Source of the DNA: an uncultured Clostridia bacterium | Lineage (GTDB): Bacteria > Bacillota > Clostridia > Lachnospirales > Anaerotignaceae | Length of the DNA: 64,000 nt | NCBI GenBank assembly: GCA_944384255.1 | Contig: CALWSS010000012.1 | Coordinates: 3,398 to 67,397 of the forward strand | Direction of reading: 5' to 3' | Part shown: one piece after another, positions 28,965-63,759 of the stretch | How the letters are laid out: the number at the start of each line of letters is the position of its first letter | How positions within the stretch are numbered: the first letter of the stretch is position 1 | The notes under the pieces: generated by a model | The model's input: the letters and a program-made list of their open reading frames with translations, nothing else | What the model was told of the DNA's origin: nothing | Database searches by the model: none | Program-made: the position numbers and the translations under genes

Positions 28965-29381
28965 TTACGGCAGTTGTTTTACAATATCATGGCAGTAATT
29001 ATCTGCAATCATACCGGAAAGAAGGACTATCTGCTCAATTAATGCCTTTTGCTCATCATCACTTCCGTATATGTACTGACATGTTCTTACACTTATGTCA
29101 CCTGTGTTTGGGTCCATTTGAAAGCTTCCTGTTTTAAGCTGATAATTTATTTTCATTAGATACTCACTTATAAGCCCTCTGTACTGAGCCTCTACACGTA
29201 TGTTGCAGTCAACAAAAAATGCCAGCATTCTTTCTTCTTCCATACACATGGCAAAGGCATTATATTTTCCTTTTTCACCGCTTATATAAAAAGATAAAAT
29301 ATCGCTGCCGTTTTCGTTTTTCTCATGAAGCGGCAGGTTATACTTTTTAGCAAAGGCCATAAACCCGTCTCTAACTGTCAT
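28965..29381 (-). CDS. YbjN / type-III-secretion-chaperone-like small protein (last gene of the CIS array)
   Basis: 138 aa, acidic. Pattern (..ILSFYISGEKGKYNAFAMCMEEERMLAFFV.. then ..TGDISVRT..) resembles YbjN-family chaperone-like folds; recollection only. Confidence 0.4.
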   Translation of the reverse strand: MTVRDGFMAFAKKYNLPLHEKNENGSDILSFYISGEKGKYNAFAMCMEEERMLAFFVDCNIRVEAQYRGLISEYLMKINYQLKTGSFQMDPNTGDISVRTCQYIYGSDDEQKALIEQIVLLSGMIADNYCHDIVKQLP

Positions 29382-29402
29382 TTTAATTCCTCCGTTTAAT
29401 TT

Positions 29403-32400
29403 TTACTCAGTATCTTTAATTACTTCAGGAATATTTACTACATCATTTTGTGTCTTTTCAAGTACGTTTTCAATATAGTCTTTTGTATTCTCTTCATTTT
29501 CAAATACAGAGCTTGGATTATTTATAACATTCTCAGTATCATGTATAACTTTCAAACACTGTTCCGACTGCTGAGCTAAAAGCATAATTCTATCCAAAGT
29601 GTCTGTTTCAAGCTGTTTCCACTTCTTCTGCATATCTTCCTGATTTTCTTTTTCCTTTTTTTCATAAGAAGTAAGTTCTTCAGCCATTGACTTAGGATCG
29701 AATATAATTTTACTTTGAAGCTCATTATATATTCTTTCAACATCTTCTTTTTCCGGCTCAAAACGAGTACCGTCATAAGCCTGTATTTTGTCTTCATCAG
29801 TCAGATTTTCATCTGTTGATAAAAGTTCTTCAATACGTCTGTCATGAATTGACATTTTAACTGACTGACGCAATTCCTCAGCTGCTATAATGTCGTTAAG
29901 TGAAATTTGAAGAGCAATGTCGCCACCCACTTTATCAAATCTCTCTGCTGTTTCGGCATATTCTTTAGCAGCTTGAGCTTTTTCTTCCTCTGTTCCGTTT
30001 TCGGCAGCTTTAAGTGCTTCTATACGGTCGTAGTGTTTTTGATAAATACTCTTCATTCTGTTTCTTTCATAGCCCAAAATCATATCAGGTGTAACCCAGC
30101 TGCCGGCTTCCTTCTGCTCATGCTTCAAAAATGATTTACCTCTACCCATTTTTTTGTATGTTTCAAGCATCTCAGGGTAATCATTTATTTTCTCAATAGC
30201 CTCTAAAACCGTTATATGGTCAGCCTTATTTTTTGAATGGAAATCAGCTGCTGTTGCTCTGTGGATTTGGTATGTATAATACCTATCCAAGTCCTCGGAT
30301 GTATATTCTCTTTGGCCCTTTGATTTTAAATAAGCTTTTAAAATATTCCTGTTTTGATCGTGATCTATTTTAGTACCGCTTTTTATCCCATGAGCCCTTA
30401 TCTGTTCATATACACTTCCGCCTTCTTTACGTATGGCACTAATCTCTTTGCCTTCATCCGGTGTCCACTGCTCGCTTCTGAAAAGTCTTTGAACTGATGA
30501 ATCGCCTTTTTCAGCAAGCTCAATTACATTATCCAAAAAGCCTACAGAACCTAAAGATTTATTTTCAAAATTAAAATACTGCTGTATAGCATCATATAAT
30601 ATTTTTTCTGCCTGTTCAGAATTCTTTTGAGGATCTGCTGCTCGAATAGCTTCGGCTTCACTCTTTTTTCTTTCAAGAAATGCAAGCCTTGAAACATGTT
30701 TCTGTTTTTTATCAGCTAAAAGCTTTTTGCCTTCAGAATTTGCTATACGTTTTTTCTCATACTCAATAAGGTCATCAATGGTTAATTCGCTTTTAATGGC
30801 TTCATAAACCCATTTTTTATTCTTGCTCTTTTTATTTTCTTCTTTTTTTCTTTTAATTAATGATTTTAAAGCTTCTGCCTTTTCATTCTGTCTTAAAGCC
30901 TCTATTAAGTCATCAGTAGTTGCAGACATATAATATGCTTTTTTATCACCGGACATTTGTGTTAATCCGGAAGAAACAAGCTCTTCAAGTCTTGTCTGCT
31001 GGTTTTCATCTCTTACACCTAAAGTTTGAAGCTGTCTAATTTCATCACGTTTTTCAAAAGCACTTTTTCCCTCTGTATCTGAATTTAATTTTTGGCTTAA
31101 TGTACTGCGTTCGTAAGCCAAAAGCCTATCCCTATTGGAATATGCATCAAGAGTATTTTTAAAATGTCTTGCACCTAATACATCAACATAATATTTATAA
31201 AACTGTGCATTAGGCACATTTGAACCGTTTTTAACTATCTCAGGGAAATTAGCTGCCAATTCACTTATTCTGTCTAAGTGAGACCTATAGTTTTCAGCTC
31301 TATAGCTGTTTACATCTGAGTATTTTTCTCTTAGTCTTTCTTCTTCATACTGCCTTAATGCAGAAATATCAGTAAAAGCTGCTCTATTTACGGCTTTACC
31401 GCCAAGACTCTTATATTTATTTAAAAGCTGACTTCCTTGCGTTGTATCACTGTCCGAAACACCAAGGCTCTTAGCAAAAGCACGCATCTGCTCTATTCGC
31501 TCATTTGACTTTCTTGTAAGTTCTTTTCTTCGGCTTACTTCATAACTGATAAGTGAACCAACAGTTACTGCCTGACGTTTTGACTTTTCTCTTAAATATT
31601 TATCAAAACCTTTTCTGTTGCCGCCGCCTTGAACATAGGCATCCATTAAATTTGCACTTGGTGTACTTGTAGGTATACTTGATTTATTTGGGTCTTGTTC
31701 AATTTTTTCCAAAGATTGAGCAATTTTTGTAATATTGCCTGAATGTAAATTTATTTTGCTCTGTATTTGATCCCCAACTTTTTTGTAGTCCTTATCCTTT
31801 TTTAAGTCCTCTACTTCCTGCATTTGAACAGCTATGGCATCTTCATTAGTACGAAGCTGAACATAGAACCTGCGCTGAATATCCCTAATGGCATCATTCA
31901 TGCTTAAAAATCCCGAGCCGACATCTTTTAAATTTACAAACATAGGCTGGCTTTTATCATGGTATGCCATAAGTATATTTTTGGCATCCTCAAATGAGCT
32001 TTGGCTGGCATCAAAGGCCTTTTTACCATAAGATGCTTCCTTCTTTTCAAACATTTTTTCCAAGTCATCTCCGCTTTCAAGACCGCCTTTAACTTTTCCT
32101 GCAAGAGCTCTGTAAGACATGCTTCCTTCTGCTCTCCATTTTTGTCCGTTTTCCTTAGTAGCCTTAATTTCAGCCGCAATGGCAGCAAGTTCCCAGTCCT
32201 TGAAAGTATAGCTGTAAAGTGTTTTCTCCCAGCCTAAAATTTGGGCATCAATACTTCCTTCAACAATAGCTCTAAGACGAAGCTCTCCTGCAGCATCAAA
32301 TTCTACTTTTTCAAAATGCGGCATGCCTTTTCTGCCTTTTTTAAACTCAGTATGTACTCCGGCTGAAAGCACATTATTGCCATCTCCTCCGGTTAATGCT

Positions 32401-34061
32401 ATTTTTGCACCTATATTGGCACTTACATTCATTAAAAATGACGGACCAGCCGTAATACCGGCCTTAAGTCCTGCATAAGCACTGCCTGTAATTGCTGCAC
32501 CAAGGTCAAGGCCAAATGTTTCAGACTGCTGATTTTTTAAAGCACCAACAATATTGTTAACAGAACCTTTAACTTTATATCCTACACTTGCTCCGGCATT
32601 AAACTTTGCATCTACTGAAACTAAGCCTGGAATAACCGGGAAAGTTAAAAATGTAATACTGTAATTAAATTTGTTGTCGCCTTCTTCGGCCTCTTCTTCG
32701 CTTTCGCCTTCTTCGTCAGGGTCTTCTTTTATAATATTAAAGTATTTAAGCACTGTTGTAGCTAAATCAAAATAACTGCTTTCGTCATCGTCTTTGCCAA
32801 TTATACTGTCAGAAAATTCCAGCTCTGTTGTATTGCCGATTTTTAACTCCCAATCATCGTCTAAATTAAAATCAAGAGCAGAATCCCTAATTGAGCCAAA
32901 GAAAATACCGTCTTCCGTAAATTCCAAATTTCTATAACAAATCTCGTTTGTATCATTTTCAATTTTGTCCGTGGCAAATAAGCCTACAATACCGTTTATA
33001 ACGCCTACTTTATCTTCTAATTCAGCAGTTAAACTATCAGCAGTATATTTATGATGAACATCAGTTTTGTCCAGCTCAATTTCGTTTTCTTTTCCTTTGA
33101 TAACTACTACAGCCACAAGCCTGCCGTTTTTACGTTCTACTGAAAATCTGTCATACCGACCAAGCTTTATACCTCTTAATCTTGAGCGGAACCTTCCGCC
33201 AGGAGCCATAAATATTATACGGTCAGGCTCTTGATATTCCAGCTCTTTTTCCAGCATTTCTTCAGATGTTTTCGGCATGCTTTCAGATGTTTCTGATGTA
33301 TTTTCATTTTCTTCAGTTGTATTTACAGGTGTTTCTTCATTATTTTCATTTACTTCTGTATTGGCATCATTTAAGCCTGCTTCCGGTGCCTTAAGGCGTA
33401 AATAATTTGTAAGCAGCTTAGGCGTTATTCCGCTTTCATCTACATATACATTTTCCGGAACGGGAACAGAGCTTTCTTCTTCTTTTGTTGTGTAAAACAA
33501 TCTCGGATTTATAAATTCTGCCTTATCCATTGTAACATGAATTTTTTCGGCTGTTAAACGTATGTGGCTCCCGTGAAATCCGCTTCTGTTATTAAGCAAA
33601 ATATCACCGTCAATATAGTTTTCTTTAAGCTTAATATTATTAAAAGGCAGTGTAAGGCCTTGATTAAATTTCTGCGGCATTATAGCCAATACACCGCCTT
33701 TACCGCTTGCTTCCGGCGGTTTAAGAAACTTTTTTTCACCTGTAGCATTTAAACTTGATAAGTCAATAGCTGCACCGGCAAAAAGCGGTATAGCTCCGCC
33801 TGTAATCTTTTGGCCTTTAGAACCCAATATCGGTCTGTTATTTATTTTGAAAAAAACTTTATTTGAGCCTTTAGTTAAATTTCTGTTTCTTATAAACTGG
33901 TAGAGCATTTCATTTTCCTGATCCATAAGCTCAGAATCAGTTTCAAACTCCAAAGACTCCTCTCCGTCTTCAGCCTCATGCCGGGCTAAGACCAAATCTA
34001 TTGCCGATACAGTCGGCTTGTTTTTTTCTGTTCCATTAATTAAAGTTTTTGCCATTTTCAA
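29403..34061 (-). CDS. 1552-aa protein of unknown function (candidate CIS cargo/effector)
   Basis: Long uninterrupted ORF, 12 nt after the ATPase gene. Acidic N-terminus, central Gly/Ala/Ser-rich beta-type segment, C-terminal ~900 aa charged helical region with a recurring YE[KR]xR module. No enzymatic toxin motif recognised. Confidence 0.6.
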   Translation of the reverse strand: MKMAKTLINGTEKNKPTVSAIDLVLARHEAEDGEESLEFETDSELMDQENEMLYQFIRNRNLTKGSNKVFFKINNRPILGSKGQKITGGAIPLFAGAAIDLSSLNATGEKKFLKPPEASGKGGVLAIMPQKFNQGLTLPFNNIKLKENYIDGDILLNNRSGFHGSHIRLTAEKIHVTMDKAEFINPRLFYTTKEEESSVPVPENVYVDESGITPKLLTNYLRLKAPEAGLNDANTEVNENNEETPVNTTEENENTSETSESMPKTSEEMLEKELEYQEPDRIIFMAPGGRFRSRLRGIKLGRYDRFSVERKNGRLVAVVVIKGKENEIELDKTDVHHKYTADSLTAELEDKVGVINGIVGLFATDKIENDTNEICYRNLEFTEDGIFFGSIRDSALDFNLDDDWELKIGNTTELEFSDSIIGKDDDESSYFDLATTVLKYFNIIKEDPDEEGESEEEAEEGDNKFNYSITFLTFPVIPGLVSVDAKFNAGASVGYKVKGSVNNIVGALKNQQSETFGLDLGAAITGSAYAGLKAGITAGPSFLMNVSANIGAKIALTGGDGNNVLSAGVHTEFKKGRKGMPHFEKVEFDAAGELRLRAIVEGSIDAQILGWEKTLYSYTFKDWELAAIAAEIKATKENGQKWRAEGSMSYRALAGKVKGGLESGDDLEKMFEKKEASYGKKAFDASQSSFEDAKNILMAYHDKSQPMFVNLKDVGSGFLSMNDAIRDIQRRFYVQLRTNEDAIAVQMQEVEDLKKDKDYKKVGDQIQSKINLHSGNITKIAQSLEKIEQDPNKSSIPTSTPSANLMDAYVQGGGNRKGFDKYLREKSKRQAVTVGSLISYEVSRRKELTRKSNERIEQMRAFAKSLGVSDSDTTQGSQLLNKYKSLGGKAVNRAAFTDISALRQYEEERLREKYSDVNSYRAENYRSHLDRISELAANFPEIVKNGSNVPNAQFYKYYVDVLGARHFKNTLDAYSNRDRLLAYERSTLSQKLNSDTEGKSAFEKRDEIRQLQTLGVRDENQQTRLEELVSSGLTQMSGDKKAYYMSATTDDLIEALRQNEKAEALKSLIKRKKEENKKSKNKKWVYEAIKSELTIDDLIEYEKKRIANSEGKKLLADKKQKHVSRLAFLERKKSEAEAIRAADPQKNSEQAEKILYDAIQQYFNFENKSLGSVGFLDNVIELAEKGDSSVQRLFRSEQWTPDEGKEISAIRKEGGSVYEQIRAHGIKSGTKIDHDQNRNILKAYLKSKGQREYTSEDLDRYYTYQIHRATAADFHSKNKADHITVLEAIEKINDYPEMLETYKKMGRGKSFLKHEQKEAGSWVTPDMILGYERNRMKSIYQKHYDRIEALKAAENGTEEEKAQAAKEYAETAERFDKVGGDIALQISLNDIIAAEELRQSVKMSIHDRRIEELLSTDENLTDEDKIQAYDGTRFEPEKEDVERIYNELQSKIIFDPKSMAEELTSYEKKEKENQEDMQKKWKQLETDTLDRIMLLAQQSEQCLKVIHDTENVINNPSSVFENEENTKDYIENVLEKTQNDVVNIPEVIKDTE

Positions 34062-34073: not shown

Positions 34074-36161
34074 TTAGGCAAGGTAGCCAAAATCATCTTT
34101 AGTCAGCTGTTTTCCGTATTTTATATAGTTCCATGTAATGGCCTCTTTAATTTGTTCGTTGCCAAGTGGCTTGTTATCTGAAACGGCTATATATGCTGCA
34201 TTAAGCAGAATTTCCTTAATCTGGCTGCCTGAAAGCTCAAATTCTTTAGCAAAAAAGTCCAAATCTATGCCGTCATCCAATGGAGTTTTATCAGGAATTA
34301 AAGAATGCCAAAGCTCTTTTCTTGTACTCTCATCAGGGAATCTGAATGGAATCATAAACTTAATTCTCCGGCGGAATGCATCATCTATCTGCTCTACAAG
34401 GTTTGTTGCAAGAATTACCATTCCGTCATACTCTTCCATTTTTTGCAGTAAATGTGCCGTTTCGGCATTGGCATTTCTGTCATTTGAGTCCTTTACTTCA
34501 CTTCTTTTGGCAAAAAGTGAGTCTGCCTCATCAAAAAACAGTATAACATTCATGTGTTTTGCTTTATCAAACAATGCAGATATGTTTTTTTCCGTTTCAC
34601 CAATATATTTGCTTACCATTTTAGATAAATCTATACGATACAGCTCAAGTCCCAGCTCATAAGCCATTATCTGCACAGCCATAGTTTTGCCTGTTCCCGG
34701 TGGACCATAAAAAAGAACGCTTACACCTCTGCCATAAGGTGTCTTTTCAAAAAAGCCCCACTCTTCACCAACCACATTTCTGTATTTAATCTGATTGCAT
34801 ATATACTTCATCTGACGTTTAACGGATTCATCCACAATAAGGTCGTCCCATACAAAAGAGCCGTTAATAAGTGAAGCATAAGCACCTAACTTTCCTGCAT
34901 CCCTTTGCTTTACTGCATCTGTTATATATTCGGCTTTAACACATATATCGTTTTTTGATACGGATGTAAGGTATGCTGTGGCAAATGTGTTTTCTATTTC
35001 ACCAACACTCATAACATATTTATTTCCGTTTAAGTTTGAATCAACATCACTGTCGGCATTATATATACTGCTGTAATAGGACCATACGGATATTTTTTCC
35101 GTTGCCGAAAGGTCCCATAATTCAAGGGACATAAAGTTTTGACTAAGCCATACCGGAAAATAATACCTTCCTTCGCCTAAAACAACAGTAAAACTGCTTA
35201 TATCAAGTAATTTAGAAAAAACAGTGCTGTAAGAGGTTTCTTTTTCTTCTGAAAAGTCAGGTATGCCGTAAAGGCACATAAAACCTTTTTCAAGGCGTAA
35301 TTTAATACTTATAGTATCAAAAAACTTTTCTTTTTTATCCTCCGGCATATTTATAACATCGTCCCAATTTATAAAAAGCACAGGAATGCCAGTAATTTCA
35401 GATAAATGAGAAACCAAAAGCTTTTTACCGGATTTTCTTATTCCATAAATATAAAGAGCAATAGCTTTATGTTCAGTATTCCAATTATTGGCAACATTAA
35501 CTGCCTTTTCAAGAACGTCGTTATATATTAAAAGTTCCGGCAAAGGCTCTTTAAAATACGGCTGTTTGTATGAAAAATTAAAGCTTTCTCCCAGAAGATA
35601 TGATAAAAGAGCACTTTTAATCTGAAAACTTTCATTATTTAAAGCCCGGTTTTTATTTAAAGCATTATGTTCAATACAAAGTTTAAAATCGCCTTTAACA
35701 TCAATTAAAAGTGCAGTTTCTTTTAAATCAGGTGTTTGAATCATACTGTAAAGCCTTAAAATCATTTCAACTGTAGGTGAGTGAACATTTTTGCTCTTTT
35801 CTTCTGAAGACAGAACAAAATTAAACTCATAATCTGCTCCGGCACAGCCTAAAAGCACAACAGCAAACTTCTCTATAGGCTCAAGCTTAAATTCTTTAAA
35901 AAACTCAGTTGTATGCAGTTTTATACCGCTTATGTCAGAAAGTTTCATACGGCGTTTAATGACTTCTTCGGCTTCTTGAATTTCGTCTTCTACAGCAAGG
36001 CAGAAATCATCGGCAAATTCACCTTGGTTTATAATTTTTTCTTTTTCAACAGCAGCCCAAAGGAGATACTCCATTACAGCAGTAAAATCAGACCATAGCT
36101 CGCTGTCCCATAGATACGGCATATTATTATCTTTATTTATCCTACAGTTAATATTGTTCAA
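34074..36161 (-). CDS. CIS-associated AAA+ ATPase (Afp15/Pvc15-like)
   Basis: C-terminal canonical AAA+ module (Walker A GPPGTGKTM, Walker B ILFFDEADS, VILATN). The N-terminal half has a degenerate P-loop (YGIRKSGKK). Start uncertain (TTG 36161 overlapping the upstream stop, or ATG 36122). Confidence 0.85.
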   Translation of the reverse strand: MNNINCRINKDNNMPYLWDSELWSDFTAVMEYLLWAAVEKEKIINQGEFADDFCLAVEDEIQEAEEVIKRRMKLSDISGIKLHTTEFFKEFKLEPIEKFAVVLLGCAGADYEFNFVLSSEEKSKNVHSPTVEMILRLYSMIQTPDLKETALLIDVKGDFKLCIEHNALNKNRALNNESFQIKSALLSYLLGESFNFSYKQPYFKEPLPELLIYNDVLEKAVNVANNWNTEHKAIALYIYGIRKSGKKLLVSHLSEITGIPVLFINWDDVINMPEDKKEKFFDTISIKLRLEKGFMCLYGIPDFSEEKETSYSTVFSKLLDISSFTVVLGEGRYYFPVWLSQNFMSLELWDLSATEKISVWSYYSSIYNADSDVDSNLNGNKYVMSVGEIENTFATAYLTSVSKNDICVKAEYITDAVKQRDAGKLGAYASLINGSFVWDDLIVDESVKRQMKYICNQIKYRNVVGEEWGFFEKTPYGRGVSVLFYGPPGTGKTMAVQIMAYELGLELYRIDLSKMVSKYIGETEKNISALFDKAKHMNVILFFDEADSLFAKRSEVKDSNDRNANAETAHLLQKMEEYDGMVILATNLVEQIDDAFRRRIKFMIPFRFPDESTRKELWHSLIPDKTPLDDGIDLDFFAKEFELSGSQIKEILLNAAYIAVSDNKPLGNEQIKEAITWNYIKYGKQLTKDDFGYLA

Positions 36162-38781
36162 AAGCGTTCATTCCTTTTTCTTTACCCAATATTTTGTCAC
36201 TGCATAGTTTTAAATAACGTCCTGCAGCCATATCATCTTTGTTCTTTCGTAATACATGAATAAAACATTTTTTTGCCTCGGCATAATTTCCCGACTGATA
36301 ATAATCAACTCCGGACTCAAAATCCTGTTTAGTCAGCTCTTTAAGTTTAACTAATTCAGGTTTCTGTCCACCAAAATCCTCATATACTGTTCTGTATGAA
36401 TTTATGCTGCCGGAAAAACTTATTCTGCCTATACATCTTATGTTCTCTTTTTCGACAGATCGCTCTATGCTTTCTTTAAATGTCTCATCAATAAGTATAC
36501 CAAGACCATAAGAAGCGCTTAGTTTTTGCAAATACCTTGCAAATGACATTTCAGGCGATACAGCACGAATTTCCATTCGTTCTTCATCACCTATTACACC
36601 TACGTTTATATCACCTATAATCAAGCCTGAACCGAATACAATTTTTTCGCCTTTTTTCTCACATTTTTTCTCACATTTTTCCTCACATTTTTTCTCATTT
36701 TTTTCTTTAAATCTTTCTCCGCCTATTTCTTTTGGAATACTTTGAAGGCTTTTTTGTATATTTACGGCAGCATTTAAAGCGTTATCCGGCATATTTTGGA
36801 AAAAGGCAAACAGTCCAGTATCAGTAAACTGCAGTACAACACCGCCTTCGTTTTCAACACCTGATACAATTTTTTCCAAGGCGCTGTTAACAAATGAAAA
36901 CATTTCCTGCACACCAACTTTTGAAACAGCTTTTGAAAAACCTATGGCGTCAATAACCAGTATAGCTGCATCCCTAATTGTCGTTTCATCTTCCGGTGAT
37001 ATCTGACGTATGTCAGACTTGCCAAAAAGACTTATAAGCTTTTGAGGAATATACGGCTCATAGGCTTTTTTTAGCTGGTCTACATTATACAGATGTTCTT
37101 TTACATTAACCGTAAGGTTATAAAATAAATTCATCATCTCGCTTATTTCGCTGCCAGTGCCGCTTTCAGGCTCTTCCATATCAATACCCACAGAAAAATC
37201 AGCCAAAGCATTTTTAATTTTATTTAAAGGCCTAAGAAGCAAAAAACTGATAACAGATAAAAACAGCACTATGCCAAAAAGAAAAATAAATATATTATTA
37301 AGAAGCTGAGGTTTTTGTTCTCTTATATCTTCCGTTATGGCTTTTTCAGTGTAAAGCATTCTTATAACACCTGTTACTTCATTATCCTGAATTACAGGAT
37401 AATACAAAGCCAAACATTTACCCATACTGTATGTATCTATAACACTTTTTACAGGAATTTTAATTTCGCAGGCTTTATTAATAGAATTATTCTCGTTTTC
37501 CATGTCAAGCAAAACAAGAGGCTCACAAAAAAGACTTCCAGAATCCATACTGAAAAAAGTACCGTCTTTATAGCCGAAAACAGAAACTGAACCAAGTATT
37601 CCCTTAAAATCACCTACCGGCTCTCCTTTATAGTCGTATATAACATCATATACAGTGCTGTCGGCTATGTTTTCGTATGAATCAACAGTTTGTCCATTTA
37701 AATACAACTCTTTTAAATCAGTATTATTATTAACTGTTCCGGCTGTATAACGCATCTGTGAGAAAATACGGTTTTCAACATCATCCTTTAAAAGACCCTC
37801 AACAGCTATCTTAAGTACAAGAGAACTTAAAATAAGCAAAGGTATTGAAATTGTGATTATTTTCAGCTCTGTAGGAAATGTTTTTCGTATTTTTCTAATT
37901 AAAACTAAAACAGATAATACAACAGCTATTAAAACACAAGCTAATGCAATTACAATAAAAAATGCCTGCTGTGTCGGAATATTCAGTCTTTCAATAGGTT
38001 CAGAGCTTTTGCCTGCAACCATAGGCAAAAGCTTTGAGTCAGCATTATAAAAACTTGCTGTCCAAGTTCCGTCTTTTGACTCACTTAATGAATAAAGTGT
38101 GCCAAAGGAGCTTATATCAGCACTAAATGGTATATTATCTGTCTTTTTCATAACTTCGCTGCTGTATGAAATTTCATAGCATGCATTATTTGCTGAGTTA
38201 TAAAAATACAAACCGTCATTTCCAAATGTATAAGCACTGTTTTGCTGTGGTATTATGCTTCCGTCATTTGAAAACAACTCTGTATTGCTTTCCATGTCGT
38301 TTTTCCAAACAGAGCCGTTATTTGAAACATACCATGTGTCACTGCCTATTTCTTTTTTTATGTATACATTATTGTCCTGAGAAATATCGGTATATTCTTT
38401 TTCAATAATCTGCCTTTCTTTTACGTCATAGCTAATCAAAATATACCTGTTTTTTTCTGTTACTTCTTTAGCTTTTAAAAGCAAGCTGCAAATACCGTCT
38501 TCAGTAATGCTTAAATTTTCAACACCGTATAACGTTTCATTTTTGCCATCTGATTTATATACAGTATCTATCCATGCATTATTGCCATACTCATCACAGC
38601 CAAAAATACGAATTTTGCCGTTTTTCTCATCAGTGCCGTATAAAACACCGTTTTCCCAAACGGTATGTTTAACGTATCCTATATCCCAAACAGGCAGTTC
38701 GTGAATAAATATCGCGGACAGCACTATAGCAGGCAGTATCAAAACCAATATTAATTTTTTAAATAACCGTCCGCTTATCAC
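36148..38781 (-). CDS. 2-TM membrane protein: extracytoplasmic domain + HAMP-like linker + degenerate class-III cyclase-homology domain + TPR tail (paralogue A)
   Basis: TM1 LILVLILPAIVLSAIFI, TM2 about residue 270, another hydrophobic segment NIFIFLFGIVLFLSVISFLLL. Cyclase-like blocks YIPQKL.., AAILVIDAIGFSKAV, GGVVLQFTDTGLFAFF, GLIIGDINVGVIGDE, FARYLQKL. C-terminal YYQSGNYAEAKKCF is TPR-like. GTG start with a GGGGGA RBS. Confidence 0.6.
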   Translation of the reverse strand: MISGRLFKKLILVLILPAIVLSAIFIHELPVWDIGYVKHTVWENGVLYGTDEKNGKIRIFGCDEYGNNAWIDTVYKSDGKNETLYGVENLSITEDGICSLLLKAKEVTEKNRYILISYDVKERQIIEKEYTDISQDNNVYIKKEIGSDTWYVSNNGSVWKNDMESNTELFSNDGSIIPQQNSAYTFGNDGLYFYNSANNACYEISYSSEVMKKTDNIPFSADISSFGTLYSLSESKDGTWTASFYNADSKLLPMVAGKSSEPIERLNIPTQQAFFIVIALACVLIAVVLSVLVLIRKIRKTFPTELKIITISIPLLILSSLVLKIAVEGLLKDDVENRIFSQMRYTAGTVNNNTDLKELYLNGQTVDSYENIADSTVYDVIYDYKGEPVGDFKGILGSVSVFGYKDGTFFSMDSGSLFCEPLVLLDMENENNSINKACEIKIPVKSVIDTYSMGKCLALYYPVIQDNEVTGVIRMLYTEKAITEDIREQKPQLLNNIFIFLFGIVLFLSVISFLLLRPLNKIKNALADFSVGIDMEEPESGTGSEISEMMNLFYNLTVNVKEHLYNVDQLKKAYEPYIPQKLISLFGKSDIRQISPEDETTIRDAAILVIDAIGFSKAVSKVGVQEMFSFVNSALEKIVSGVENEGGVVLQFTDTGLFAFFQNMPDNALNAAVNIQKSLQSIPKEIGGERFKEKNEKKCEEKCEKKCEKKGEKIVFGSGLIIGDINVGVIGDEERMEIRAVSPEMSFARYLQKLSASYGLGILIDETFKESIERSVEKENIRCIGRISFSGSINSYRTVYEDFGGQKPELVKLKELTKQDFESGVDYYQSGNYAEAKKCFIHVLRKNKDDMAAGRYLKLCSDKILGKEKGMNAFEQY
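36652..36700. repeat. 12-nt tandem repeat (about 4 units) inside paralogue A
   Basis: TTTTTTCTCACA x2, TTTTTCCTCACA, TTTTTTCTCA.. on the + strand. Encodes EKKCEEKCEKKCEKKGEK within the cyclase-like domain. Confidence 0.8.
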
Positions 38782-53991: not shown

Positions 53992-54420
53992 TTACAGTTC
54001 AATTCCTTCATTAATAAAGAATGGAAATACCAAGTTATACGGGTTATTAGTTGAACGCACCACATAAGAAATCGAAATAAAAGCTTTCCCGTCTTCCGGT
54101 GTGTCCTGTGATACTTCTACTGAAATATCACGAATTCTTGGTTCCCATTTTATCAGTGCTTCTTTTATGCTTTTTTCCATTTGGGAAACAGTAGTATAAT
54201 CAAGAGTAGCAAAGGCAAAATCGTGTATTCCACAGCCAAAATCCGGACGCATTAGTCGTTCGCCTTTTTTTGTCATTAATATTATATATATAGCTTCTTT
54301 TATATCTTCCTCAAAGGATGAGGACATAAATCGGCCTGTTGCCGAATCCGGCATAACAGGGAAACTAAATCCAGTTCCCAAAAACTCCATACCGTTTTTA
54401 TTGTCCCCCATATATATCAC
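53992..54420 (-). CDS. baseplate wedge protein gp25/GPW family (Afp9-like)
   Basis: GTGFSFPV ... I...I..IL.T..GER.MRPDFGCGIHDF.F, the GPW_gp25 signature. Confidence 0.85.
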   Translation of the reverse strand: MIYMGDNKNGMEFLGTGFSFPVMPDSATGRFMSSSFEEDIKEAIYIILMTKKGERLMRPDFGCGIHDFAFATLDYTTVSQMEKSIKEALIKWEPRIRDISVEVSQDTPEDGKAFISISYVVRSTNNPYNLVFPFFINEGIEL

Positions 54421-56292: not shown

Positions 56293-56985
56293 TTAAAGTG
56301 CAGGAATTTTTAACACCTGTCCCGGATATATTTTAAGCGGGTTAAGAAGGCCATTTGCCTTTGCTATAACACGCCATTTTTCACAGTCGCCGTATTCTTC
56401 ATAAGCTATATTCCAAAGGCTTGTCCCTTCCAGAACCGTTCTGTATTTAGTTCTGTCCGGCGATTCAAAAGGCTCGGCTTTTTTTGTCAGGCCTTCTTCC
56501 TGTGCTTCTTTAATAGTTAAATCCATTTTAGCCCTAATAGGCTTGCCAAATGTATCAAACATGGTAAAAGTTTCCGTTACGGAAGTAATAACACCTTTAA
56601 AGCTTAAATTGCCCCATACAAAAGAAACAAGCGGCGGTTTATGGTCACTGCCTGAAACCTGAACGGCTGATGTTATTTTTTTCATTATATCCGTTACCGG
56701 CTTAACTGAACTGCTGGAGCTGAGCATTCCGGTAGCTATTCCAATTAAACTTTCGGAACGGCCCTTTTCACCTTCGCTGTCAAAAAAAAGTGTTGTGGTA
56801 AATTCCTTTTGTGCTCCGGATAAAAATACCATTCTTGATACATCCGTACCTAATGAATTGTCTTCTTTATAATTAGCAGTACTTTTTATTGTGTACTGTG
56901 ACGGGTTAAATGAGCACTCAACTTCTTCTTTGCTTTTGCCGTTATTTTTGTATATTATGATTTTGGCTTTTTTAAGCGTTCCCAT
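56293..56985 (-). CDS. tube-initiator-like protein with C-terminal LysM domain
   Basis: N-terminal KAKIIIY.....EEVECSFNPSQYTI resembles CIS tube-fold proteins. C-terminal YRTVLEGTSLWNIAYEEYGD..KWRVIAKANGL.NPLKIYPGQVLKIP is a LysM motif. Confidence 0.75.
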   Translation of the reverse strand: MGTLKKAKIIIYKNNGKSKEEVECSFNPSQYTIKSTANYKEDNSLGTDVSRMVFLSGAQKEFTTTLFFDSEGEKGRSESLIGIATGMLSSSSSVKPVTDIMKKITSAVQVSGSDHKPPLVSFVWGNLSFKGVITSVTETFTMFDTFGKPIRAKMDLTIKEAQEEGLTKKAEPFESPDRTKYRTVLEGTSLWNIAYEEYGDCEKWRVIAKANGLLNPLKIYPGQVLKIPAL

Positions 56986-57004: not shown

Positions 57005-60000
57005 TTAAAGTCCTCTTCGCATTTTCTCAAGCCTTAGCTGTGACTGCATTTGATTCATTACTTTTTCAGCCACTACGGAAATATCGGTTATTTTGAGCAT
57101 CTGCTTTTGAGTAGTTAAAATATTTTCAATTTCTTTCTGCTGTGAGTTAATGCGCTTTGTAAGCTCATAAATGGTTTGTTTTTCCTTCTGCTGAAATTCT
57201 GTGCTTTTATTAAGCTTTATAATATCGTTTACCTGTGTTTTTACTGTCTGCTGAACCTGAGTTGATATATCCGGTATTTTAACCGGGCTGTTTACAGTAT
57301 TCTGAGCTTTGCTATTTTTTGCTATAACCAAATCAGCTGTTTTATACTGGTTTAGTTCATTTTCAGCAACACTTTTGTTATTGCGGTTAATTAAATTTGA
57401 TGTAAAATAATTGACATTTTCAGCTATTGAAGAATTTAAACTTTCATCAGTATAAACCGGATTTATATTATTTGGAAAATGTGTTTTGTTCATTATCTGA
57501 AACACGGTTTCTTGTGGATTTTGATATAAGTTTTCAAAAATTGTATCAGCAAAAGCATTTTCTTCCGCTGTACTTTTTTTCATAACTTTATTTCCAACTA
57601 CACTTCCAACTGTATTTCTAACTGTATTTCTAACTGCATTATTAACAATGTTCTGAAATCTATTTTGAACTGCATTTCTGTTTTCCGTGTTATAAACCCA
57701 ATTTATTATTCGTTTAATTGTTGCATTGTTTGCTTTTGTAATTTGAACATTAGACAATATTTTTTTCACATCACCGGTTTTATATGCTTCTTCCACTTTG
57801 TTTAATGAATTTGTATCAGCTTTTTCTGCCAAATCAGATATAATGGCATTTATTCTTTCATTTTGTGAAGCAAGCTTTATAAAACTGCCTGCATAGTCTT
57901 TATTATTTATAATTTTCCGTATAAACTCATCTTTTTGTTCTTCAAAAGACTGTTCATTATTTTTCTCAGGCTGACTTTTTACATTTTCCAAAACCGGTTT
58001 TAAATACTCAGCCTCATTTTGTGTGTTAATAAACGTTCTTATTTCATCCAACTGAGGTTTTGTAATATATTTCATCCAGTTTCCAAGTTTTTCTGAAACA
58101 TCAGTTGTATGTTCGTTTAAATATAAAGAAGTATTTTTTAATTTGTTATTATTTAAAAGATTGTTTTGAGTATTTCCATTGGATTTATTAATATTAGTTT
58201 TTCTATTCTCCGATGCTTTTAAGTCTACCCAGCCCGTTAGCTCTTTTTTTATTTCTTTGTTTTCAGCAAGTTTATTCAGTATATTTAAGCTCTGGATTTT
58301 ATTGTTTTTGATATACTCTATTACTTCTCGTTTTTCTGCCGAAAACTCCGGCTCCGTTTCCTGTTTTTTATTCTTTACTGTTTCAAGCAAAGGCCTTATG
58401 TATTCTGTTTCCTCACTTGCGGTAAGAACGGTCTTTACACTTTCCCACTGGGTTTCTGTTAAATATGTAATCCAGTCTGTAAGCTGTGTTGTTACGTTAT
58501 TTACTAATTCTCGGTTTTGGGTTATTTCTTCTGATTCTTTGTTTATTTCTGTTTTTTCATTTATATTGTTATTAACAGTTTTATTTTCTGTTGTTGTTTT
58601 CTTTTCTAATTCTTTTAAATCTACCCAGCCCGTTAGCTCTTTTTTTATTTCTTCGTTTTCAGCAAGTTTATTCAGTATATTTAAGCTCTGGGTTTTATTG
58701 TTTTTGATATACTCTATTACTTCTCGTTTTTCTGCCGAAAACTCAGGCTCCGTTTCCTGTTTTTTATTCTTTACCGTTTCAAGCAAAGGCCTTATGTATT
58801 CTGTTTCTTCGCTTGTTGTAAGAATGGTCTTTACACTTTCCCACTGGGTTTCTGTTAAATATGTTATCCAGTCTGTAAGCTGTGCCGATGTATTATTTAT
58901 TATTTCTCTGTTTTGAGTTATTTCTTCTGGACTTCTGTTTATTTCCGTTTTTTCATTTATATTGTTATTAACAGTTTTATTTACTGTTGTTGTTTTCTTT
59001 TCTAATACTTTTAAATTTACCCAGCCCGTTAGCTCTTTTTTTATTTCCTCGTTTTCGGTAAGTTTATGAAGTATATCTAAGCTCTGGGTTTTATTGTTTT
59101 TTATATACTCTATTACTTCTCGTTTTTCTGCTGAAAACTCAGGCTCGGTTTCCTGTTTTTTATTCTTTACCGTTTCAAGCAAAGGCTTTATATACTCCGT
59201 TTCTTTACTTGCGGTAAGAACGGTCTTTACTTCTTCCCACTGGCTTTCTGTTAAGTATGTTATCCAGTCTGTAAACTTAGATGATATTTCATTAATTTCA
59301 AGCTCAGAAACATTTATATTATTTAAATTATATTTATTAATTTCAGTTGATTTAACAGCTTCATTAACAATTGGTGCATAGTTGTTATTATAAATAAAAT
59401 TAATAAACTCCTGTTTTTCACTTTCCCACTTATCAAATGACTTATTTTCTCCAACCGTAGTTTTAAAAAACTGTTTTATAGTGTTTATATTATTATCAGT
59501 ACTATTTAAAAGAACAGTTTTAAAATTAAGCCACTGATTTTGTGTCATATCCAGTACATATCTTAAATTTTGGTTTTGCTTTATGTAGTTTTGCAGATTA
59601 ATGTTATCTTCTGCATTTTTAACATATAAAGACACTTGCGGAAGCACATTTTGCAAAAAAACACTCCACTGTTCTTTTGTCATTCTTTTAACTGAAGTAA
59701 TATCATACTCAGTCATTGAAACAGCTTTAAGAAACTCTTTTTGCTCATTTTCACCCATAGATTTATATATATTATAAAATTCATAGGCATCCTTCTGCCA
59801 AGGCTCTCTTTGAGCTGACGTAATTATATAATTTACAGGCTTAAAAAGGCTGTTTCCAGCAACAGAAATATTGCTTATTTTATTTGAATTATTTAACTTA
59901 TTTTCATACTTTTTTATATTGGACAAGTTAAAAACAGGCCTGTTGGCATAAGGCTTAAAACTATAATTATTAATCTGATTATTTATTTGTTTGTGATTGC

Positions 60001-60874: not shown

Positions 60875-61111
60875 TTAAATTTTAAACATATTTTCCGGTT
60901 CATCATTTAACTTTCGGTTTATACCGGAAATCTCATTACACCAGCGTACTCTTTCAAGATGGCTCATACTCATAATTTCATCATGACTCCAATGAACATA
61001 ATAAGCTATAAATGCCGCTTCCTCGTATATTTTATCTGCCGGATATGTTTTTATAGACCGGCTTGCATAAAATTTATAGGAACTTCTATCTCCTTTTTGC
61101 AGTGAGGACAT
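60875..61111 (-). CDS. small conserved CIS protein; possibly the -1 frame extension of the upstream chaperone-like ORF
   Basis: ..AFIAYYVHWSHDEIMSMSHLERVRWCNEISGINRKLN.. is a small-protein block I associate with eCIS loci. No good RBS before ATG 61111. Overlaps 61051..61434 by 61 nt. Confidence 0.5.
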   Translation of the reverse strand: MSSLQKGDRSSYKFYASRSIKTYPADKIYEEAAFIAYYVHWSHDEIMSMSHLERVRWCNEISGINRKLNDEPENMFKI

Positions 61112-61434: not shown

Positions 61435-61568
61435 CTCATTTTTGAAAACAAGACCGCACTAAAGCGAATATCTAATATGTTTTTAAGCTGCCAAAACCTT
61501 ATTTTAATTAAAAATTCGGCTTTGCTTAAAAGATACACTTAGTGCAGTCTTTATGTTTTATTGTTATA

Positions 61569-61997
61569 TTACGATACTCTTGTCATACCTTCATGAACAA
61601 TCTCAAGTGTTTCGATTGCTATTTCAGAAGCTGAAGCATTAAAGTCCGGTGCTGTATATTTTGTAGGCCATGCATTTATTATCTGCCATGAAGCAGCCGG
61701 AGCCTGTGTTTCGTTTAATAATGTAATAGTAAGAGTTTTACGCTCAATTTCACCGTTTATGCCTGTTGTTATCCAGTCATATAATACTCTTGAATCTGTA
61801 ACACCCTGTTTTAAAGTTATGTTTCCATATTTTTTAAGACCTGTTACTTTCATAGGTGTTTCAGCCGTCATGTCGCCTTCTCTATATTCAATAGGCTCGA
61901 TTGTAGCATCAAAGCCTGTAACTTCTGAAAAGCCGCCGGCCTCCAAGCCGTCAATTTCAACCTTATATCTAAATTTTGCCTGAGGATAGCCTGCCAT
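61569..61997 (-). CDS. tail tube protein (Afp1-like, gp19 family)
   Basis: KFRYKVEIDGLEAGGFSEVTGFDATIEPIEYREGD.. is the canonical CIS/phage tube N-terminus; 142 aa. Confidence 0.9.
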   Translation of the reverse strand: MAGYPQAKFRYKVEIDGLEAGGFSEVTGFDATIEPIEYREGDMTAETPMKVTGLKKYGNITLKQGVTDSRVLYDWITTGINGEIERKTLTITLLNETQAPAASWQIINAWPTKYTAPDFNASASEIAIETLEIVHEGMTRVS

Positions 61998-62028
61998 TTA
62001 TATTTACTCCTTTCGTGCTTTAATTTAA

Positions 62029-63759
62029 TTATTCTGCATCTGCTGTTTTCTGAGAAATACGGAATATTACAAATTCTGCCGGTTTTACAGGTGCTACACC
62101 TATAACACAGATAAGTCTTCCGTTATCAATATCGTCTTGGCTCATTGTATCTCTGCCTATATGAACAAAAAATGCTTCTTCTGGAGAAGTACCGGCAAGA
62201 GAACCGCCTCTCCAAAGATTTGTTAAAAATACACTTATTGTTCTTTGTACTCTTACCCAAAGCACCTCGTCATTAGGCTCAAAAACAGCCCAGTTTGTAT
62301 TTGCTTTAATTGATTCTTCAATAAATATAAAAAGTCTACGTACATTTATGTATTTCCAGCTGCTGTTGCTTGTTGCAGTTCTTGCACCCCAAACACGTAT
62401 ACCCTGTCCTGCAAAAGCTCTGATAAGGTTAACACCCTTAGGGTTAAGTATATCCTGCTCGCCTGTGTTAAACTGGCACTCAAGACCTATACAGCCTCTA
62501 ACTACTTCGTTTGCAGGAGCTTTATGCACACCTCTTGTATTGTCGCTTCTTGCATAAATTCCAAGTATTGAGCCTGAAGGCGGTATTGAAATGTTTTTCT
62601 TATCAAGTGGGTCAAAAACCTTGAGCCATGGATGATAAAGAGCTGCATAATTTGTATCAAATATATTTCTGTGAGCTATAATATCTTCTACTTTTTTGGC
62701 ATCTTTCGGAATATCAAGTACGGCAAATCTGCTGCCTGTGTTTTCACAGTGTGCCACAAGTGTGAGCTGAACGTTAGGGTCAGTAACACCCGGTACAGCT
62801 ATTAATGAAACAACATCGTTATCCAAAAATGCCTGTATACCAGTTCTGCTGCCTGCACCTTTATCCTCACCTATAAAGTCTGCTGCTGAAATGTTTGATA
62901 CACTGCCGTTGCTTCCGCCTGAAAATACAGCTGAGCCTACGGATTCTTCTTTACCTGCAAGCTGCTCAAAAGGCGGCTCAACTGCTTTGTTGTCGCCTAA
63001 ATAATGTACTTCTACCAAGTCGGACTTAGCCATTTTCTTATCAACGTAGTTAGGTGCCTCTACATTAAAAGACATCTGGTCGTAAAACTCAACTATTTCG
63101 TTGAAGCTTACTTCCATTGCAAATTCACATGTTGATATAATTTTTGTTGGAAGTATAGATTTATCAACAACATCAATGTCAAATTCCTTTTCAAAAGAAA
63201 TTACATTGTCGCGGCTGTTAACTACTTTATTATACACAATTTCTGTGCCGTCTGTATACATTACAACATCTCCGGCATAAAAACCTGCTCCGTTTTTAAC
63301 AAGATATTTATTGCCTTCGTTTGTTTCAATAACTTCTAATATCTGTGTTTTAGCCTTGCTTGAAGGTGTTACTACAACACGGATATTATTGCCCCACATA
63401 CCCGGGTTTTTAGCTGTAAGCTGTAAAACAGCCTCATCTTTATTAGGCATAAAGCCTGTAGCACATGCTGCATCCTGAGGTGCAACCCTGCAAACGAAAC
63501 ATCTTGAGCCGCCGTTTAAAAAGAACTGCTCTACTGCATAAGCTAAATAACGGTATTCTCCAAACTCGTTTTCAGAAAGATAACCTCCATAAATTCTGTG
63601 AAAATTAGCCGGGTTTGTAACAAGCTGCGGCACACCTTCAACAGGGCCTCTTTCCGCAAGGCCTATAAAACCTGCTGTACTTGTGCTAACGCCTTCCATA
63701 GGTTTAGAACCGGATTCAAATTCCTCCACATATACTCCTGGTGACAAATATTCAGCCAT
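62029..63759 (-). CDS. contractile tail sheath protein (Afp2-4-like)
   Basis: MAEYLSPGVYVEEFESGSKPMEGVSTSTAGFIG start and C-terminal ..VNLIRAFAGQGIRVWGARTA.....WKYINVRRL block typical of phage/CIS sheaths. Confidence 0.95.
   Translation of the reverse strand: MAEYLSPGVYVEEFESGSKPMEGVSTSTAGFIGLAERGPVEGVPQLVTNPANFHRIYGGYLSENEFGEYRYLAYAVEQFFLNGGSRCFVCRVAPQDAACATGFMPNKDEAVLQLTAKNPGMWGNNIRVVVTPSSKAKTQILEVIETNEGNKYLVKNGAGFYAGDVVMYTDGTEIVYNKVVNSRDNVISFEKEFDIDVVDKSILPTKIISTCEFAMEVSFNEIVEFYDQMSFNVEAPNYVDKKMAKSDLVEVHYLGDNKAVEPPFEQLAGKEESVGSAVFSGGSNGSVSNISAADFIGEDKGAGSRTGIQAFLDNDVVSLIAVPGVTDPNVQLTLVAHCENTGSRFAVLDIPKDAKKVEDIIAHRNIFDTNYAALYHPWLKVFDPLDKKNISIPPSGSILGIYARSDNTRGVHKAPANEVVRGCIGLECQFNTGEQDILNPKGVNLIRAFAGQGIRVWGARTATSNSSWKYINVRRLFIFIEESIKANTNWAVFEPNDEVLWVRVQRTISVFLTNLWRGGSLAGTSPEEAFFVHIGRDTMSQDDIDNGRLICVIGVAPVKPAEFVIFRISQKTADAE

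Follow-up and report, generated by a model that had tools for sequence, protein, structure and literature searches.

A gene cluster encoding a contractile injection system (CIS) was identified on the minus strand, at positions 28965-63759, of a 64,000-nucleotide stretch of DNA from an uncultured Clostridia bacterium of the Anaerotignaceae (NCBI GenBank assembly GCA_944384255.1, contig CALWSS010000012.1, positions 3,398 to 67,397 of the forward strand). The whole stretch is referred to as the window, and positions are counted from its first nucleotide unless another contig is named. A sheath and tube, a baseplate and spike set, a terminator cap and a Cis15 ATPase were all found in the cluster, which is the set of parts expected of a CIS. 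With moderate confidence, the locus is read here as a chromosomal, cell-bound and signal-gated CIS of a monoderm gut bacterium related to Anaerotignum (Lachnospirales), equipped with a co-inherited envelope and signalling module. A preliminary description of the same DNA had labelled the system as extracellular (eCIS). That label was backed by no test result, and the accessory genes speak for a system that stays bound to the cell.

Contractile core and lineage of the system

The identity of the core genes was established by matches above cut-off to Pfam, NCBIfam and PHROG models, which were obtained for 15 genes. The core genes of the window, with their open reading frame (ORF) numbers where these are used below, are as follows (aa, amino acids).

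62029-63759, minus strand: contractile sheath (Cis2); Phage_sheath_1 78.7 bits, Phage_sheath_1C 66.3 bits; top PDB match 9EZM, E 2.5e-133
61569-61997, minus strand: inner tube protein (Cis1, gp19-like); Phage_T4_gp19 153 bits
61051-61434, minus strand: ORF3, tail assembly chaperone-like protein with a C-terminal CxxC; phrog_508, E 2.5e-6
60875-61111, minus strand: ORF4, DUF6760 protein; DUF6760 65 bits
60444-60857, minus strand: second tube-family protein (Cis5/Afp5-like); Phage_T4_gp19 38 bits, TIGR02241 43 bits
57005-60418, minus strand: tape-measure candidate, 1137 aa; position, size and tandem repeat
56293-56985, minus strand: tube initiator with LysM (Cis7/Afp7-like); CIS_tube 119.7 bits, LysM 22.1 bits
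55189-56268, minus strand: gpD-like baseplate hub, the N-terminal half of a VgrG equivalent; Phage_GPD 41 bits, YQBQ 42 bits
54425-55198, minus strand: gpV-like spike with OB-fold and beta-helix, the C-terminal half of a VgrG equivalent; Phage_base_V 70.8 bits, C-terminal parts of VgrG models
53992-54420, minus strand: gp25-like sheath initiator (Cis9); GPW_gp25 93 bits
50974-53976, minus strand: large Cis11-like baseplate protein, 1000 aa; C-terminal part of TIGR02243 78.5 bits (below cut-off), phrog_6 baseplate wedge E 7.5e-9
48969-50960, minus strand: ORF12, Baseplate-J/Cis11 protein, 663 aa; Baseplate_J 58 bits, TIGR02243 164 bits (above cut-off), PDB chain 9GTP_1K E 8e-19
47835-48950, minus strand: ORF13, Cis12-like/Tail_P2_I baseplate protein; Tail_P2_I 26.8 bits, CIS12_fam 151 bits (partial), TIGR02242 81 bits
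46082-47812, minus strand: ORF14, Cis13-like peripheral baseplate protein; CIS13_fam, N-terminal part, 71.6 bits (cut-off 370)
42671-43252, minus strand: tube/sheath terminator cap (Cis16/Pvc16); Pvc16_N 97 bits
41558-41944, minus strand: DUF4280 PAAR-like spike tip (Cis10); DUF4280 119 bits, weak PAAR match
34074-36161, minus strand: Cis15/Afp15-type AAA+ ATPase, copy b; AAA 115.6 bits, weak N-terminal WHD match

The hallmark genes of a CIS had been named in the preliminary description, and nearly all of these calls scored above curated cut-offs, those of the sheath, tube, cap and ATPase among them. Two calls were of a different kind. The 1000-aa baseplate-J-like gene gave a partial TIGR02243 match and a baseplate-wedge match, and the tape measure was assigned from its position, size and repeats, with no family match in Pfam, NCBIfam or PHROGs. 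The repeat in the tape-measure candidate is a 396-bp (132-aa) tandem unit present in 2.7 copies at 58216-59274, with 92% identity between the copies. Across relatives the candidate measures 1133, 1136, 1145 and 1413 aa, and particle length may differ among strains if this protein is indeed the tape measure. For the cap protein, a single-sequence PDB search gave nothing useful.

The chaperone-like pair proposed earlier was borne out by the phrog_508 tail-assembly-chaperone match of ORF3 and the DUF6760 match of ORF4. ORF4 lies in the -1 frame relative to ORF3, and the 61-nucleotide (nt) overlap of the two genes (61051-61111), which is kept in relatives, holds a C-AAA-AAG slippery-type site. From this arrangement, ORF3 and ORF4 are a possible frameshift pair that can be likened to the G/GT tail chaperones of phages.

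ORF14 is encoded directly downstream of the Tail_P2_I gene, which is the same placement as that of the eBAP3 proteins in a catalogue of receptor-binding domains from eCIS (PMC12923769). No fibre or Ig domain was matched in ORF14 in Pfam, and the protein is a candidate eBAP3/TssK-like connector or fibre. The ATPase encoded in the window, Cis15b, and a 618-aa ATPase encoded further upstream are paralogs, with 38% identity over a stretch of about 400 residues that takes in the part preceding the AAA domain. Both ATPases are single-AAA proteins of the Cis15 type. Of the markers of the canonical type VI secretion system (T6SS, subtypes i-iii), TssJ/L/M, TssA and the ClpV double-AAA unfoldase were searched for and none was matched.

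Lineage was read from a similarity ranking of the sheath against all solved structures in the PDB, and not from a tree. The top match was 9EZM, the Cis2 sheath of Halogeometricum borinquense, with 449 bits and an E-value of 2.5e-133. Second best were the Streptomyces sheaths 8BKY and 8BL4, with about 360-369 bits and E-values of 1e-106 to 1e-109. Pvc2, Afp2, the Anabaena sheath and AlgoCIS scored 163-195 bits (E 1e-47 to 1e-54 for Afp2 and Pvc2), and pyocin and T4 scored 61 bits or less. The ranking agrees well with the earlier view that the locus represents an atypical lineage and not a standard Afp/PVC-type particle. On sheath similarity, the locus is assigned to a CIS branch with the haloarchaeal membrane-bound, T6SS-like systems and the cytoplasmic CIS of Streptomyces as characterised members. 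The clade IIa CIS of Halogeometricum borinquense is bound to the cytoplasmic membrane and is used in contact-dependent killing (Zachs et al. 2024, PMC11566945). The CIS of Streptomyces is cytoplasmic, and a cluster-encoded bitopic protein whose N-terminus is cytoplasmic, CisA, is required for its firing (Casu et al. 2023/2025, PMC12237407). Since the one system is membrane-bound and the other cytoplasmic, neither of the characterised systems nearest in sheath is a released particle.

Accessory membrane and signalling genes

Seven genes of the window fall outside the standard CIS parts list. A number of about ten had been put forward before, and it is reduced to about seven since ORF13 and ORF14 match the CIS12 and CIS13 models. 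Four of the non-standard genes had been described as encoding membrane proteins, and the hydropathy profiles agree. The seven genes are the following.

45128-46075, minus strand: ORF15, bitopic membrane protein with a kinase-like cytoplasmic N-terminal domain; hydropathy, weak Pkinase matches
43376-45124, minus strand: ORF16, bitopic membrane MORN protein; MORN 84 bits, hydropathy
41959-42699, minus strand: ORF18, conserved 246-aa protein between the cap and tip genes; orthologs at the same position in loci L009-L015 and L021-L023
38797-41496, minus strand: ORF20, receptor-like membrane protein A, 899 aa; hydropathy, HAMP 21.6 bits
36148-38781, minus strand: ORF21, receptor-like membrane protein B, 877 aa; hydropathy, architecture as ORF20
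29403-34061, minus strand: ORF23, orphan protein of 1,552 aa; AlphaFold2 (AF2) model, linkage to the CIS module
28965-29381, minus strand: ORF24, YbjN-like protein, 138 aa; weak YbjN matches in all five orthologs, best E 0.007

ORF20 and ORF21 share one architecture, in which four transmembrane (TM) segments and two ectodomains are combined with a HAMP domain, a degenerate class III cyclase-homology domain and a TPR-like tail. The two proteins are paralogs, with 22% identity over the full length (E 3e-38), and HAMP was matched above cut-off in their distant orthologs. A profile of nine sequences of the ORF21-type C-terminal domain matched class III adenylate cyclases in the PDB with an E-value of 1.2e-7, and an ORF20 profile matched bPAC with an E-value of 0.002. 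A single-sequence PDB search with ORF20 gave nothing useful. In the AF2 model of ORF21 the C-terminal pLDDT was 70-89, and the model resembled CyaC, Cya2, CyaB and bPAC, with Foldseek E-values of 1e-9 to 1e-12 and TM-target scores of 0.7-0.8. The cytoplasmic HAMP, cyclase and tail regions are better conserved than the ectodomains (mean pairwise identity of 60-73% versus 44-54%).

An alignment with bPAC showed that the catalytic residues Lys-x3-Asp, Asn and Arg are replaced in 20 of 20 family members, in each of which Asn is changed to Ser and Arg to Tyr, Phe or Trp. The first metal Asp only is kept in the ORF21-type proteins, and neither is kept in the ORF20-type proteins. No member of the ORF20/ORF21 family was matched by Pfam Guanylate_cyc. 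Active cyclase signalling was considered and rejected, the catalytic residues being missing. We infer from these sequence features that ORF20 and ORF21 are a receptor pair with a pseudo-cyclase output. The pair is probably heterodimeric, because cyclase domains dimerise. The order of TM segment, HAMP, transducer helix and cyclase domain, as well as the fold, is that of the mycobacterial and cyanobacterial receptor-type class III cyclases with HAMP. Unlike these enzymes, ORF20 and ORF21 are without the catalytic Lys/Asp, Asn and Arg, and their paralogous genes lie side by side within a CIS operon. In the ORF21 gene, a 12-bp unit is repeated 5.8 times in tandem at 36641-36706. The repeat encodes an insertion rich in Lys, Glu and Cys, EKKCEEKCEKKCEKKGEK, which sits in a loop of the domain homologous to cyclases and is found in none of the eight aligned orthologs.

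ORF15 and ORF16 are bitopic, and their genes directly follow the Cis13-like gene. The single TM segment of ORF15 covers residues 243-261 and is followed by a short acidic outer tail that ends in an invariant SGVE. Its N-terminal domain of about 215 aa gave weak Pkinase matches in the four orthologs scanned, with a best E-value of 0.013, and its weak PDB matches were nearly all to Ser/Thr kinases. The DFG Asp and the catalytic-loop Asn are absent from the alignment. The matches hint, weakly, at a membrane-anchored pseudokinase-like protein. In ORF16 the TM segment covers residues 81-99, and about nine or more MORN repeats and an acidic tail follow on the outside. The N-terminus of ORF16 is placed in the cytoplasm because positive charges precede the TM segment. 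The N-terminal segment of 78 aa is, together with the TM segment, the best conserved part of ORF16 (80%, versus 37% for the tail).

No family match was found for ORF18 in Pfam, NCBIfam or PHROGs. The giant ORF23 was likewise without a match in these three databases and in the PDB, even when profiles of 5 and 28 sequences were used. When 1.84 billion representative proteins were searched exhaustively with HMMER, the ORF23 family came to only 46 clusters, nearly all of 1,300-1,960 aa. Residues 1-720 were modelled with AF2 from 28 homologs (mean pLDDT 71) as two beta-rich domains. Within this part, residues 463-652 form eight very long beta-strands (pLDDT 85-93), which are rich in Gly and Ala and alternate between hydrophobic and polar residues. 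The C-terminal part of about 900 aa consists of helical repeats. Foldseek returned only low-TM resemblances to large beta-barrels and to the hairpins of pore-state MACPF proteins, and these were not taken as homology. ORF24 is always encoded directly after ORF23. YbjN proteins share their fold with type III secretion chaperones, and ORF24 is a candidate chaperone for ORF23.

Close homologs of the sheath (78-100% identity) were abundant in gut metagenomes and metagenome-assembled genomes (MAGs). Few of them are from named organisms, these being Lachnoclostridium, Hungatella and Clostridium sp. In a scan of one genome per species, the ORF21 family was found in only about seven species, all of them Clostridia/Lachnospiraceae MAGs besides the cultured Anaerotignum lactatifermentans DSM 14214. 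All downstream genes of the locus are present on contig NZ_FRAH01000028.1 of DSM 14214 in the same order, with 46-88% identity. Three distant relatives of ORF23 (23-33% identity) are encoded in one and the same series of genes, in which a cap, an ORF18-like protein, a DUF4280 protein, two large HAMP membrane proteins and an AAA ATPase are followed by the ORF23-like protein itself and by a protein about 140 aa long. A gene for the MORN membrane protein is located just upstream in the two distant loci that are long enough to show it (L021 and L022). The module from the MORN protein to ORF24 is kept in three distant loci at 22-51% identity, and ORF23 was always linked to the CIS module in the loci examined. 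Because ORF23 is retained over a large divergence, while the cargo toxins of CIS and T6SS typically vary, it is more likely a fixed functional component. Judged from this co-conservation, the accessory module belongs to the machine and not to its swappable cargo. A role of ORF23 as a variable cargo toxin was rejected, the protein being conserved with the module in distant loci.

Two other Clostridia CIS, with sheaths 69-78% identical to the present one, were reached by way of the ATPase in L019 (12147-17082) and L020 (13757-16234). In these loci a DUF4157 "eCIS_core" protein is encoded after the Cis15-type ATPase, and a regulator of the SARP/BTAD type takes the place of the LytTR regulator found upstream of the present locus. 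A pair of ATPase and small charged protein genes precedes the sheath or tube genes in L019 and L020 too. The arrangement suggests a different subtype with a different regulatory input. Because these loci are arranged differently, the accessory module would be specific to a subtype and not a feature of all Clostridia CIS.

The conservation of the module bears on the doubtful explanation that the locus encodes a classical extracellular CIS of the Afp/PVC/AlgoCIS type. Such particles would be assembled in the cytoplasm, would be set free when part of the population lyses and would bind their target through the Cis13-like protein as a fibre; ORF23 would be injected as cargo, and the membrane proteins would serve only regulation or release. 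The full Afp-like set of parts, including the cap, the tape-measure candidate, the Cis15 ATPase and the LysM initiator, speaks for such a particle. So does the Cis13-like gene after the Tail_P2_I gene, an order comparable to that of the Bacillota eBAP3 "fibre" loci, which are catalogued as eCIS in PMC12923769, and the position of the large protein gene after the ATPase is that of the Afp17/18 toxins. However, no holin, endolysin or other lysis gene was found in or beside the locus. The four membrane proteins and ORF23 are co-conserved with the core in distant loci, where cargo toxins would normally vary, and release by lysis leaves the conserved membrane module unexplained. In addition, the closest characterised sheaths are from non-released systems (PMC11566945, PMC12237407).

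The core parts list of Afp, PVC and AlgoCIS (the equivalents of Afp1-16) is shared with the present locus, including the cap, the AAA+ ATPase, the LysM initiator and the PAAR-like tip. However, the sheath is distant (163-195 versus 449 bits) and is encoded by one gene where the Afp-type loci have three. Separate gpD and gpV genes make up the spike, Cis15 occurs as two paralogs next to a phage-type chaperone pair in the parts list, and a Tail_P2_I-type baseplate is combined with a membrane and signalling module. No adenovirus-like tail fibre was found.

Extent and genomic context of the locus

Twenty-four minus-strand ORFs of at least 60 aa were found within 28965-63759 by the ORF listing and by our own translation. 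The count of 26 ORFs given in the preliminary description was too high, as no extra credible small ORF was found when the gaps were checked. Only 577 of the 34,795 nt of the array (1.7%) are intergenic. The three larger gaps were exactly as described before: the tube gene is followed by 134 nt and the DUF4280 gene by 61 nt, and 123 nt precede the cap gene. The remaining junctions are overlapping or up to 31 nt long. GGAGG-like ribosome-binding sites precede most of the genes. The GC content of the array (0.30-0.39) is the same as in the remainder of the window, and the GC skew is negative throughout the array. Plus-strand ORFs in the region are short and only nested within minus-strand genes. 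Three further features were located in or beside the array.

63919-64000, minus strand: 3' end (last 82 nt of the window) of the gene for a soluble, highly charged, conserved protein of 216-234 aa; the rest lies outside the window
61445-61559, minus strand: long hairpin with U-tract in the 134-nt gap between the tube and chaperone genes; dG -39 kcal/mol, z -5.8 versus shuffles
28899-28930, no strand assigned: hairpin with a 13-bp stem between convergent genes; z -5.4

The first of these features shows that the locus is not complete in the window, as had been assumed, and that three more genes and about 4 kb of the array lie upstream of position 64000. For the DNA beyond this position, a near-identical metagenome contig, L007, and relatives were used in place of the window itself. 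Exact look-ups of the sheath and of its cluster representative (100% identical) retrieved no contig and those of the DUF4280 protein only contigs shorter than 1 kb, whereas the identical tube protein led to informative genomic context. The last 300 nt of the window (63701-64000) correspond to 7551-7850 of L007 at 98.7% identity. Upstream of the sheath, genes for the 216-234-aa protein, the 618-aa AAA+ ATPase and a 270-aa SnoaL-LytTR regulator were found in L007, L001, L002, L005, L006 and L008 (3672-7632 in L007, 4271-8079 in L005). The gene for the charged protein lies between the AAA+ ATPase and sheath genes in L001, L005-L008, L019 and L020, and no Pfam match was found for its product. The full unit is about 27 genes and 39 kb long, in the order LytTR regulator, Cis15a ATPase, 234-aa protein and then the 24 genes of the window. 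Beyond the LytTR regulator, housekeeping genes follow that vary between genomes.

The hairpin at 61445-61559 is followed by UUGUUUU. Its outer stem and U-tract are kept in four relatives, with one compensatory pair, and a compact version is found in L001. The hairpin is a candidate partial terminator or mRNA-stabilising element after the sheath and tube genes, and it may attenuate transcription, giving an excess of sheath and tube transcripts. The 123-nt gap before the cap gene had no significant structure (z +0.46). Promoter and terminator scans gave the same counts as shuffled sequences, with the exception of the hairpin at 28899-28930, which is likely a bidirectional terminator at the 3' end of the locus.

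The phage-like gene content raises the question of whether the locus is an R-type tailocin, a bacteriocin like the diffocins, or a tail module left in a defective prophage of a myovirus. R-type bacteriocins occur in Clostridia, and the genes for the sheath and tube, the tape measure, the baseplate and the chaperone pair, with its possible frameshift, are all of the phage-tail kind. The CIS-specific markers, namely the Pvc16_N cap, CIS_tube, the Cis15 AAA+ ATPases, DUF4280 and the CIS12 and CIS13 models, speak against such an origin, as does the best phage sheath match of only 35% identity. Capsid, portal, terminase, integrase, lysis and TssJLM families were not matched in any gene of the locus, in agreement with the preliminary description, and holin and endolysin families were absent from the locus and its flanks. 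Upstream of position 64000, where such genes might have revealed an intact prophage, no head, terminase or integrase genes were found in L007 (98.7% identical), L001, L005, L006 or L008.

The conservation of the locus across species in different flanks is a further point against a phage origin. The same gene order and ends were found in several species amid differing neighbours: in L010 the locus adjoins Spo0A and an HTH gene, and in L022 it adjoins SecE. Because the order and the ends are the same beside different neighbours, and no phage head genes are present, the locus is a chromosomal CIS that is conserved as a block and not a prophage. The prophage and tailocin readings were rejected on this genomic context and are regarded as highly improbable.

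At its 3' end, the array faces a convergent plus-strand gene (24930-28865) for a 1,311-aa fusion of metallophosphatase/5'-nucleotidase, SLH anchor and M13 peptidase. This fusion is probably unrelated to the CIS, because it adjoins the locus in L009 but not in L010. The remainder of the window is of housekeeping character, with genes for glutamine synthetase, the Firmicute FBPase, DapA, Asd and IlvD. Four tRNA genes (Trp, Asn, Ser-GGA, Ser-TGA) are clustered on the minus strand at 1334-1741, about 27 kb from the CIS locus, with no integrase nearby.

In L006 (ERZ21563605), which is otherwise about 100% identical to the window, the gpV spike gene is split by an insertion sequence (IS) element with an rve-family transposase and an HTH gene at 17203-18410. 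The tape-measure and upstream ATPase genes are split as well in this contig. The CIS locus is thus inactivated in at least one natural population.

Proposed mode of action and significance

The cell-bound, signal-gated reading can be worked out into a sequence of steps. The particle would be assembled in the cytoplasm and then docked on the cytoplasmic membrane with its baseplate first. Docking could be achieved by the TssG/TssK-like Cis12 and Cis13 proteins together with the cytoplasmic parts of ORF15 and ORF16. ORF20 and ORF21 would take up a cue from outside the cell or from the envelope and pass it on, by way of HAMP, to the output formed by the pseudo-cyclase and the TPR-like tail. This output would gate docking or firing through contacts between proteins and not through the synthesis of cAMP. 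ORF23, kept competent by ORF24, would be delivered or membrane-inserted as a translocator or pore. A precedent for gating by a signalling pathway is the H1-T6SS of Pseudomonas, which is gated by the PpkA/TagQRST threonine-phosphorylation pathway. Precedents for CIS membrane adaptors are CisA in Streptomyces (PMC12237407) and Hbor_38620 in haloarchaea (PMC11566945). According to PMC12923769, the Tail_P2_I and eBAP3 baseplate proteins resemble TssG and TssK. The loci described there, from Bacillota and Actinobacteriota, share with the present locus the Tail_P2_I gene followed by a Cis13-like gene and the TssG/TssK-like baseplate, and Bacillota is also the phylum of the present host. They differ in that they are treated as extracellular, and no membrane receptors, pseudokinase, MORN or giant protein are described in the part of the source consulted.

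The Halogeometricum cluster has several features in common with the present locus. In addition to the closest solved sheath, it has two cis11 genes, Cis12 and Cis13, a linked membrane protein and a host without outer membrane. Its membrane protein, Hbor_38620, is the proposed anchor (PMC11566945). However, no tape measure is recognisable in the archaeal cluster, which is divided into two sub-clusters with toxin-immunity pairs. The locus described here has a tape-measure candidate, a conserved giant protein and four different membrane proteins, the HAMP pseudo-cyclase receptors among them, and its host has a peptidoglycan wall to cross. The proposed archaeal anchor is also a single protein with six TM segments, and none of the four membrane proteins of the present locus has six.

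A Streptomyces-like intracellular CIS is judged unlikely. The particles of such a system would be free in the cytoplasm until, under stress, they were recruited to the cell's own membrane by the bitopic adaptors, and their firing would lead to regulated cell death or to a developmental switch, for which sporulation is a candidate, with no delivery between cells. The host is a Gram-positive monoderm as in Streptomyces, the Streptomyces sheaths are the second-best solved match, and the baseplate-J chain 9GTP matches ORF12. A stress-sensing receptor pair would fit stress-triggered firing, and the IS-disrupted locus of L006 shows that the system is dispensable in one metagenome. ORF15 and ORF16 also have the topology of CisA, with a cytoplasmic N-terminus, one TM segment and the C-terminus outside. 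However, the likeness established is one of topology: the outer domain of CisA resembles substrate-binding proteins, and MORN repeats or a short acidic tail are found here instead. No HAMP pseudo-cyclase pair or conserved protein of 1,500 aa has been reported from the Streptomyces systems. The PAAR-like tip and the conserved giant beta-hairpin protein with its chaperone-like partner resemble delivery equipment, and the sheath is nearer to the haloarchaeal antagonistic system than to Streptomyces (449 versus 369 bits).

Several points weigh against the cell-bound, signal-gated reading. The cell-bound mode was deduced from the gene content and the nearest characterised relatives, and these differ from each other, one being membrane-bound and the other free in the cytoplasm. 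The cap, tape measure, Cis15 and LysM initiator are the gene set of released eCIS too. Another possible identity for the Cis13-like protein is that of an eBAP3-type fibre for receptor binding, a kind treated as extracellular in PMC12923769. The thick Gram-positive wall would be an obstacle to firing outwards from the membrane. In the Clostridia loci L019 and L020, no ORF20/ORF21 pair was found in the 10 kb around the Cis15 homologs. For the individual proteins, the loss of cyclase activity in ORF20 and ORF21 is predicted from their sequences alone, and the pseudokinase and YbjN assignments of ORF15 and ORF24 rest on weak matches (E 0.007-0.013). The ORF23 model had no real structural relative in Foldseek searches of the PDB and BFVD (TM-scores of 0.12 or less), and the label "pore or translocator" is guessed from the length of the strands and their amphipathic character.

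Firmicutes CIS loci have already been catalogued by genome mining, one such catalogue being PMC12923769. In the literature searched, no paper was found that ties a CIS to HAMP receptors, MORN proteins, pseudokinases, Anaerotignum or the biology of Lachnospiraceae, and no report was found of a Bacillota CIS localised or characterised in cells. A more far-reaching proposal, which is offered tentatively, is that the locus is the first signal-gated, membrane-docked CIS in a monoderm and functionally a Gram-positive "T6SS". The envelope complex, in which the heterodimeric HAMP pseudo-cyclase receptor is joined by the pseudokinase and MORN proteins, would position and trigger the machine, and the beta-hairpin protein with its partner resembling type III secretion chaperones would act as translocator or pore and not as a variable toxin.

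CIS shape microbial communities and are being engineered as tools for protein delivery. They have been reported as depleted from human-associated microbes. The present locus is found in Clostridia MAGs from the human and animal gut and in the cultured strain DSM 14214, which makes the proposal directly testable. If the module does dock and gate the machine, the locus would show a phage-tail device coupled to an envelope sensor in a thick-walled cell without outer membrane. A degenerate cyclase domain would then have gained a use as a mechanical or signalling adaptor, and ORF23 would add a new family of large proteins to the parts list of CIS.

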